Shown here: piece by piece, positions 7,629-7,802 of the stretch
How the letters are laid out: each line of letters opens with the position of its first letter
Position numbering within the stretch: position 1 is the first letter of the stretch
IMG/VR virus record: IMGVR_UViG_2609459832_000001
Location: 1-8,258 of that record
DNA from: a virus
Lineage: Monodnaviria > Loebvirae > Hofneiviricota > Faserviricetes > Tubulavirales > Inoviridae
Reading direction: 5' to 3' (one strand)
DNA: 8,258 bases
The notes under the pieces: model-generated
Database searches by the model: none
The model's input: only the letters and a program-made list of their open reading frames with translations
What the model was told of the DNA's origin: nothing
Translations under genes and position numbers: made by a program

Positions 7629-7802
7629 ATGAACAACTGGAGTGAGATCATATTAGACCTGCTGATGAAGCACATAATAGGTGGCGCCGCGATTGGCGTG
7701 GCTATCCTGTTGTTTGCCGGAGTGATTTTTCCTGTTGCGCTGAAGATAAGGAAGCTCACTGGCAGGAAAAAACAGCGAATAAAACAGAAACTCACCAGTT
7801 AA
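7629..7802 (+). CDS. Small single-pass membrane protein of unknown function (57 aa: MNNWSEIILDLLMKHIIGGAAIGVAILLFAGVIFPVALKIRKLTGRKKQRIKQKLTS)
   Basis: Hand-translated and absent from the ORF track (under 60 aa). Strong SD AAGGGGAAGA immediately upstream of the ATG at 7629. One hydrophobic helix followed by a highly basic tail. Stop TAA at 7800-7802, 3 nt before the dif-like palindrome. Confidence 0.45.
   Translation: MNNWSEIILDLLMKHIIGGAAIGVAILLFAGVIFPVALKIRKLTGRKKQRIKQKLTS

Follow-up and report, generated by a model that had tools for sequence, protein, structure and literature searches.

An ORFan family of small predicted membrane proteins very probably encoded beside attP in dif-integrating inoviruses of Escherichia coli

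The DNA analysed here (8,258 nucleotides; IMG/VR record IMGVR_UViG_2609459832_000001, positions 1 to 8,258; hereafter the window) is as a whole a dif-integrated Escherichia coli inovirus prophage. The element in question is a 57-codon open reading frame (ORF) on the + strand (7629-7802, stop codon included, ATG start), which follows a helix-turn-helix (HTH) regulator and ends exactly at the start of the folded XerCD attachment site, attP. The ORF was judged very likely to be a real protein-coding gene, and its product is likely, by prediction, a membrane protein. Judging from sequence, it very probably represents an ORFan family of small membrane proteins carried by dif-integrating inoviruses of E. 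coli, of a kind known as phage accessory small membrane proteins. Two branches were recognized: subfamily A, which includes the ORF in the window, and subfamily B. New here are the unannotated branch B and the identification of an N-terminal motif plus a transmembrane (TM) helix as the conserved part.

Subfamily B was recovered by scanning the sequence upstream of attP in other phages with the same attP. In strain 700481, an ORF of 51 aa ending at attP (locus L027 2349-2504; MQTTSDLILDLLIKHFVVGSITGMTIFSLITLVLPLVMTIHNKLSKDTEIL) matched the window protein at 33% identity over 42 aa (14/42; BLASTP E 1e-9, single comparison). Aligned in fixed register, A and B scored 75 against -15 ± 14 in shuffles that kept the composition of the N-terminal, TM and tail segments separately (z 6.3; reached by 0 of 100,000). 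The N-terminal segment scored 42 against a shuffle mean of -9.6, which 0 of 50,000 shuffles reached, and the similarity of the TM segment was significant alone (P = 0.003). Between A and B, synonymous sites were saturated (proportion of synonymous differences, pS, 0.65-0.72; of non-synonymous differences, pN, 0.43-0.47). Differences at codon positions 1, 2 and 3 numbered 21, 12 and 28, the pattern of coding in the sense frame, and similarity totalled 75 in the sense frame and 49 in the antisense frame. Variants of B were 80% identical among themselves; between variants B1 and B2 the ratio of non-synonymous to synonymous substitution rates (dN/dS) was 0.41-0.44, with the 51-codon length and the stop position retained. 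The stop codon adjoins attP in both subfamilies.

Subfamily B was found in 12 further complete E. coli genomes, where it is without RefSeq annotation, and in IMG/VR contigs (copies besides that in L027: L029 9018-9173 and 17273-17428; L030 and L031, each 2518-2673; L032-L039). The phages that carry A and B have themselves diverged (pIV 48% and pI 40% identical), so the small gene has been maintained over the same evolutionary distance. Retention through divergence of this depth makes the gene very likely to be useful to the phage or the lysogen. Conservation in homologous elements, a check proposed in the earlier note on this DNA, came out in favour of a gene: nine alleles are intact (one further allele is broken by an IS66-family insertion), and a homologue 33% identical occupies the same site. 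Invariant residues in the A/B alignment (A4) were M1, I8, L9, D10, K14, H15, G23, P35 and I40. As far as the aligned sequences indicate, what is conserved is the amphipathic motif at the N-terminus, S-[DE]-[IL]-ILDLL-[MI]-KH, together with the predicted TM helix, rather than the basic tail. The lysine/arginine (K/R) tail and the strong Shine-Dalgarno (SD) sequence, on which the earlier note had laid stress, proved to belong to branch A only and are not kept in B.

In the window, the ORF was present exactly where it had been placed, with the ATG start that had been assigned to it. Its description as unannotated was right for the ORF track used at that time and wrong for RefSeq/PGAP, in which the same 174-nt ORF is recorded in related prophages as a hypothetical protein (WP_001409659.1, WP_172946430.1, WP_170867409.1). 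The SD region (TAAGGGGAAGA; 7618-7628, + strand) contains UAAGGGGA, whose pairing with the 3' end of 16S rRNA (-8.3 kcal/mol) exceeded that of the other 11 gene starts examined in the window and ranked among the top 3.6% of its 20-mers. The ribosome-binding site is strong on these figures; "near-ideal" had overstated it, the spacing between SD and ATG being only 3-4 nt. In the E24377A context, where the sequence immediately upstream differs, the SD is retained as GAGGGGAAGA. An in-frame ATG (MRGRMNNW...) lies four codons upstream there and overlaps the SD (L010 9498-9512), and the PGAP start is unchanged.

The predicted protein is made up of the acidic amphipathic N-terminal motif conserved between A and B (codons 5-15, 7641-7673), a predicted TM helix with the invariant G23 and P35 (codons 16-38, 7674-7742), and a K/R-rich tail that is specific to subfamily A and predicted to be cytoplasmic (codons 39-57, 7743-7799), all on the + strand. 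The Kyte-Doolittle (KD) mean over 19 residues peaked at 2.62 from residue 16, and the C-terminal 19 residues held 9 K/R and zero D/E, in agreement with the single TM helix and basic tail first described. AlphaFold returned a single helix over residues 3-56 (mean predicted local distance difference test score, pLDDT, 78.7; 83-90 over the TM segment). For comparison, 503 ORFs of 40-90 aa were taken from the window and six related loci, read in all six frames. The combination of KD ≥ 2.0, at least 7 K/R in the tail, an ATG and an SD was unique to the 57-aa ORF (1/503), which places the architecture beyond chance; length by itself was unremarkable, with about 6.5% of random 57-codon frames open.

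Nine DNA alleles of subfamily A contained 18 variable sites and 19 substitutions (13 non-synonymous, 6 synonymous), with no stop; indels were present in the flanking non-coding DNA and none lay inside the ORF. Replacements were more conservative than random (mean BLOSUM +0.83 against -0.13, P = 0.023). Recombination breakpoints spared the SD and the ORF in three regulator/replication contexts, and in that of E24377A the upstream sequence was replaced to about 10 nt before the ATG with both left untouched. The record pJNE25-005_3 (L009), which appears error-ridden, was left out. By themselves, the close relatives provide weak evidence for a gene.

Several results weigh against reading the ORF as a conserved and expressed membrane-protein gene. 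Within A, the ratio of non-synonymous to synonymous changes was neutral-like (12 observed against 12.15 simulated, from the 18 substitutions in the interval common to the sense and antisense frames). Its pN/pS of 0.65 compares with 0.04-0.32 for pIV, pI and pVI and 0.45 for pVIII, and was significantly above that of pooled pIV, pI and pVI (Fisher p 0.004). The codon-usage score, at 0.01 bit per codon where the phage genes reach 0.17-0.38, was neutral and uninformative. An IS66-family element in codon 42 (L019 505-567, GCA_002535075.1) constitutes a natural knock-out allele. In subfamily B, the tails (NKLSKDTEIL or DKMNRRTDSF) have a net charge of 0 to +1, so that the basic tail is not conserved, and SD pairing is weak (-0.1 to -5.9 kcal/mol). 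Two scans for a sigma-70 promoter near the ORF gave no convincing site on either strand. A good + strand terminator stands between regulator and ORF in the E24377A context (L010 9293-9316), so co-transcription with the regulator is not general and an own promoter would be needed there. In the Ka/Ks comparison suggested in the earlier note, values within A were near neutral at a divergence too low to inform, and the dN/dS between B1 and B2 counted in favour of a gene.

A 66-aa ORF on the opposite strand (7595-7795, - strand) has its wobble positions in common with the sense ORF and is best taken as a shadow frame, because the third codon positions of the two coincide. That it should instead be the real gene, with the sense ORF as its shadow, is very improbable. 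The antisense frame is open in both subfamilies, an ATG stands at its start in most A alleles, and its product is likewise hydrophobic. Set against this, SD pairing at its start reaches only -1.5 kcal/mol, a premature stop interrupts it in allele L015, and subfamily B has no start codon at the matching place. Its replacements are radical (V>E, S>R, S>I) and no more conservative than random (P = 0.60), and between A and B more differences fall on its second codon positions (21) than on its first (12), the reverse of a coding pattern. Dismissal of this frame as an artefact, as the first description had it, was therefore upheld.

It is also quite unlikely that there is no gene at all, that is, that an ORF arose by chance in DNA conserved in cis (as origin, packaging or XerCD accessory sequence) or by recent common descent. 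The block 7420-7945 is nearly identical between phages within subfamily A, and the neutral pattern within A, the uninformative codon usage, the failure to find a promoter nearby and the absence of homologues outside E. coli in the protein searches described below would all fit such an origin. So would the best-conserved A/B stretch, GACCTGCTGAT[G/A]AAGCA[C/T], which is conserved at synonymous sites too. What speaks for a gene instead is the comparison of A with B, in which a sense codon-position pattern, protein similarity despite saturated synonymous sites, and retention of length and stop are found together, and the feature combination seen in one of 503 ORFs. The ORF region is moreover unstructured as single-stranded DNA (ssDNA; z -0.9, where its flanks have -3.4 and -11.9) and so is not among the hairpin elements of the phage. 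Nor is the segment needed in cis, since phages with the same attP and intergenic hairpins exist without it.

Subfamily A occurred in 22 of 5426 complete E. coli genomes (97-99.5% identity), the identical set of genomes that carries the pVI-pIII module of the window (22/22). A single morphogenesis module (pIV, pI and pVI 98-99.7% identical; L001, L002 and L010 against the window) was joined to at least three unrelated replication/regulator modules, and the small ORF was retained in JNE25-003 and E24377A, where the regulator has been swapped for others. No homologue outside these E. coli phages was found in any database searched. Queries of 5.8 billion proteins (with the single sequence, the B sequence and a profile) and of 1.84 billion representatives (phmmer) returned only clusters of the family itself. 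Searches with tblastn gave no match in phage records and a remnant copy in three E. coli plasmids. Species-representative genomes held no relative of the ORF or of pI.

S21EC and RIVM, phages of another morphogenesis type with intergenic hairpins and an attP homologous to those here, lack the ORF and have about 75 nt in its place. A possible ORF remnant in S21EC was not counted; the resemblance in alignment is weak and a start codon is absent. Other genes fill the slot elsewhere: a 168-aa protein and a 68-aa protein with two TM segments in the A37 replicative form, a 132-aa protein, a 120-aa multi-TM protein and an unannotated 22-aa hydrophobic ORF in strain 90-9280, and a 364-aa protein in LD39-1. 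The 68-aa cargo protein of A37 matched subfamily B weakly (BLASTP E 0.001), and hhalign was negative. Because the slot is empty in S21EC and RIVM and holds other genes in A37, 90-9280 and LD39-1, the site next to attP is a variable cargo site with recurring membrane proteins, which agrees with the earlier suggestion of accessory cargo beside the attachment site. As related phages do without it, the ORF is probably not required for phage multiplication; it appears to be accessory yet old enough to have diverged with the phage. The 22-aa ORF (MSMETGVAIIILLVIVGKLIGL; L018 8922-8990, also L025 2422-2490) belongs to a different inovirus, lies downstream of the 120-aa multi-TM cargo protein, has a GAGGA SD and ends 11 nt before attP.

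No usable family match to the product was found in Pfam, PHROGs, NCBIfam, PADLOC or PDB sequences, and a search of the literature on this prophage type found nothing relevant. The UPphi paper deals with other unknown ORFs in the inovirus intergenic region, the 57-codon ORF not being among them. The nearest functional model for a possible role of the ORF is PfsE (PA0721) of the Pseudomonas filamentous phage Pf4, a very small predicted inner-membrane protein that is not in the virion and excludes superinfecting phage by contact with another protein in the membrane (PMC8764522). Like PfsE, the ORF product is a small predicted inner-membrane protein of an integrative filamentous phage encoded outside the virion gene set; related phages whose morphogenesis modules are complete lack it. 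PfsE has 30 residues and a YAWGW aromatic motif; the type IV pilus protein PilC is its target, a cytoplasmic N-terminus has been proposed for it, and its gene lies inside the core phage genome (PMC8764522). The ORF products differ in having 51-57 residues, in lacking YAWGW in both subfamilies, in showing no sequence relationship to PfsE (no PHROG or Pfam match), in being encoded on the regulator strand beside attP, and in an N-terminus predicted to be periplasmic.

On the reading preferred here, the product would be a single-pass inner-membrane protein with its short acidic N-terminus in the periplasm and its C-terminal tail in the cytoplasm; this topology follows from the positive-inside rule, which applies strongly in A and weakly in B. 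The ORF would be transcribed on the strand of the regulator, the transcript ending at the attP hairpin, so that synthesis of the protein would coincide with silence of the structural genes or not depend on them. Transcription could read through from the regulator promoter, because the hairpin after the regulator in the window is terminator-like on the - strand only. The inner 14-bp hairpin of attP (7832-7870), which has a T run on both strands, is likely the terminator of the ORF transcript. As a guess, the conserved N-terminal segment and TM helix might bind a component of the envelope on which filamentous phages depend for entry or assembly, with Tol-Pal, the pilus machinery or the membrane proteins of an incoming phage as candidate targets, and the lysogen might be shielded from superinfection by related phages, heteroimmune ones included, in the manner of PfsE. 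A small membrane protein with an action on the envelope, of which superinfection exclusion would be one example, is the best overall explanation, at about an even chance. The exclusion-type function taken alone, which is argued by analogy, is more doubtful, and no result singles it out over other membrane functions. Unlikely is the more far-reaching prospect of an unrecognized class of E. coli inovirus lysogeny factor, an inner-membrane protein of 51-57 aa that would use its conserved periplasmic amphipathic head and TM helix to disable a host envelope machine (e.g., TolQRA) required by sibling filamentous phages to enter, and would thereby give receptor-level exclusion across immunity types, or of an RNA-silenced membrane toxin that would lock dif tandem prophage arrays.

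An unlikely alternative to exclusion is a type I-toxin-like or addiction peptide, whose translation would be blocked by RNA structure or antisense RNA and which would stabilize the prophage or its replicative form against loss, for instance by XerCD excision. New type I toxins have been sought by descriptive features, namely fewer than 60-70 aa, a TM segment, a cluster of charged residues at the C-terminus and extended intergenic DNA on the flanks (PMC2887945). The 57-aa protein shows all of these, and the products of both subfamilies are small hydrophobic TM proteins (A 57 aa, B 51 aa). Known type I toxins (Hok, Ldr, TisB, Fst, ZorO) share with the ORF their size, single hydrophobic helix, narrow taxonomic range and long intergenic location, and with subfamily A only the charged C-terminal cluster (PMC2887945). 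In this family, however, the conserved part is the N-terminal amphipathic motif, not the charged tail, which B lacks. The likeness to Hok, Ldr and TisB raised in the earlier note was one of generic architecture; no toxin family model matched at threshold, and the nearest, Fst (E 0.04, 13.8 bits against a cut-off of 26), was reached by subfamily A and not by B. In three contexts, the CU-rich stretch upstream was predicted to pair with the SD. This pairing was equalled, however, by 10-17% of shuffled leaders of the same composition and was not taken as evidence, being no stronger than with those leaders, and the CU-rich stretch also occurs in phages without the ORF. An antisense RNA could end at the - strand terminator-like hairpins just upstream of the ORF (A 7417-7398; B L027 2313-2298), and weak - strand -10-like elements lie within the ORFs of both subfamilies. 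Yet the - strand terminator is absent from the E24377A context, and - strand promoter candidates were at background level (437 hits ≥ 5 in the window). A search of Rfam for antitoxin RNAs found none, permissive thresholds giving noise only. For the antisense RNA regulator that had been entertained earlier, neither an antitoxin RNA family nor a convincing antisense promoter was found.

A role in the phage cycle is no more probable than a toxin, whether as a coat-like membrane protein in assembly, in DNA handling at the membrane or in integration beside attP. Inovirus major coat proteins (M13 pVIII, Pf3 coat) have an acidic N-terminus outside, one TM helix and a basic C-terminus inside, and the predicted topology of subfamily A resembles that of the mature proteins in all three features. 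In inheritance the ORF also follows the morphogenesis module strictly, not the regulator/replication module (22/22 genomes, three regulator types), and its divergence between the two lineages (33% identity) is similar to that of pI and pIV (40-48%). Physical linkage across attP suffices, however, to explain the co-inheritance. A major coat protein is expected to be encoded in the morphogenesis operon, between the ssDNA-binding protein and pIII. The ORF lies outside that operon, beside attP and on the strand opposite to every morphogenesis gene; its product gave no alignment to the pVIII of the window at E ≤ 100, and the basic tail is missing in B. The ORF is absent from related phages, and relatives with 45%-identical pIV manage without it.

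Annotation systematically overlooks small membrane proteins or leaves them "hypothetical", as with branch B in the 12 complete RefSeq genomes. The present gene is found in filamentous prophages of enterotoxigenic E. coli (ETEC) strains (E24377A, TW10573) and of livestock E. coli. An exclusion factor or toxin, if that is what it encodes, would be the first such function for a dif-integrating E. coli inovirus and, at 51-57 residues, a compact tool; without a phenotype, the gene stays an ordinary ORFan.

The morphogenesis and replication genes of the window all lie on the - strand: the replication protein (6722-5595), the ssDNA-binding protein, small membrane proteins and pVIII, pIII (4618-3293; the fastest-evolving gene, 86-97% identical), pVI, the Zot-like pI (2923-1667) and the pIV secretin (1657-437). 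The HTH (Xre/cI-type) regulator (6906-7394; Pfam HTH_3 2e-08; PHROG transcriptional regulator) is on the + strand, as is the small ORF. Near-identical prophages, often in tandem arrays, were found at the chromosomal terminus (dif) beside hipBA in several E. coli genomes, among them those of the ETEC strains named above.

The attP (7801-7906) begins at the stop codon of the ORF. As in other CTX-type integrative mobile elements exploiting Xer (IMEX), it consists of two inverted dif-like sites that pair in ssDNA into one hairpin of the viral strand (-43.7 kcal/mol, z -11.9), and its prophages sit at chromosomal dif beside hipA/hipB. XerC-arm-like sites (AGTGCGCAYAATG) are at 7807-7819 (+) and 7888-7900 (-). 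This attP is about 94% conserved between phage lineages in which substitutions have reached saturation in the adjacent genes. In CTXphi the order is rstR, ig-1 and attP, with a divergent repressor, an intergenic region and a two-site inverted attP used by XerCD at dif. The window shares the regulator, intergenic region and two-site attP that folds in ssDNA, and differs from CTXphi by the extra small membrane-protein gene between intergenic region and attP; we know of no small gene between ig-1 and attP in CTXphi.

The intergenic region between regulator and ORF (7395-7628) is structured (ssDNA z -3.4, RNA z -3.3), with hairpins at 7398-7417, terminator-like on the - strand, and at 7421-7446, which is If1-like. 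Within it, a 55-nt piece (7400-7455) that takes in the hairpin GTTCGGG...CCCGAAC matches the major intergenic region of If1, a non-integrating phage, at 96% identity and is, on this resemblance, probably a shared origin or packaging element. The following stretch (about 7460-7600) is CU-rich (GA-rich on the viral strand) and strongly structured. It is present also in S21EC (L016) and RIVM (L017), and because these relatives keep it without the ORF, it is likely a cis-acting phage element and not an ORF leader. Terminator-like hairpins between regulator and ORF were noted on the - strand in the window (7398-7417) and in L027 (2298-2313) and on the + strand in L010 (9293-9316), a difference in strand that would imply different transcription layouts or an antisense transcript.

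The window includes a junction between two tandem prophage copies that are not identical, and its right end (7907-8258) belongs to the left end of the second copy. The sequence there agrees at 100% with that of the left end of the E24377A prophage, but at only about 83% with the window's own left end (1-260). A direct repeat of 43 nt (88% identical) occurs at 7899-7941, starting from the right arm of attP, and at 8209-8251, the copies lying 310 nt apart. Short direct repeats containing CGTCTCA are found between attP and the end of pIV (82-101, 8020-8039 and 8041-8060) and may form a protein-binding array.

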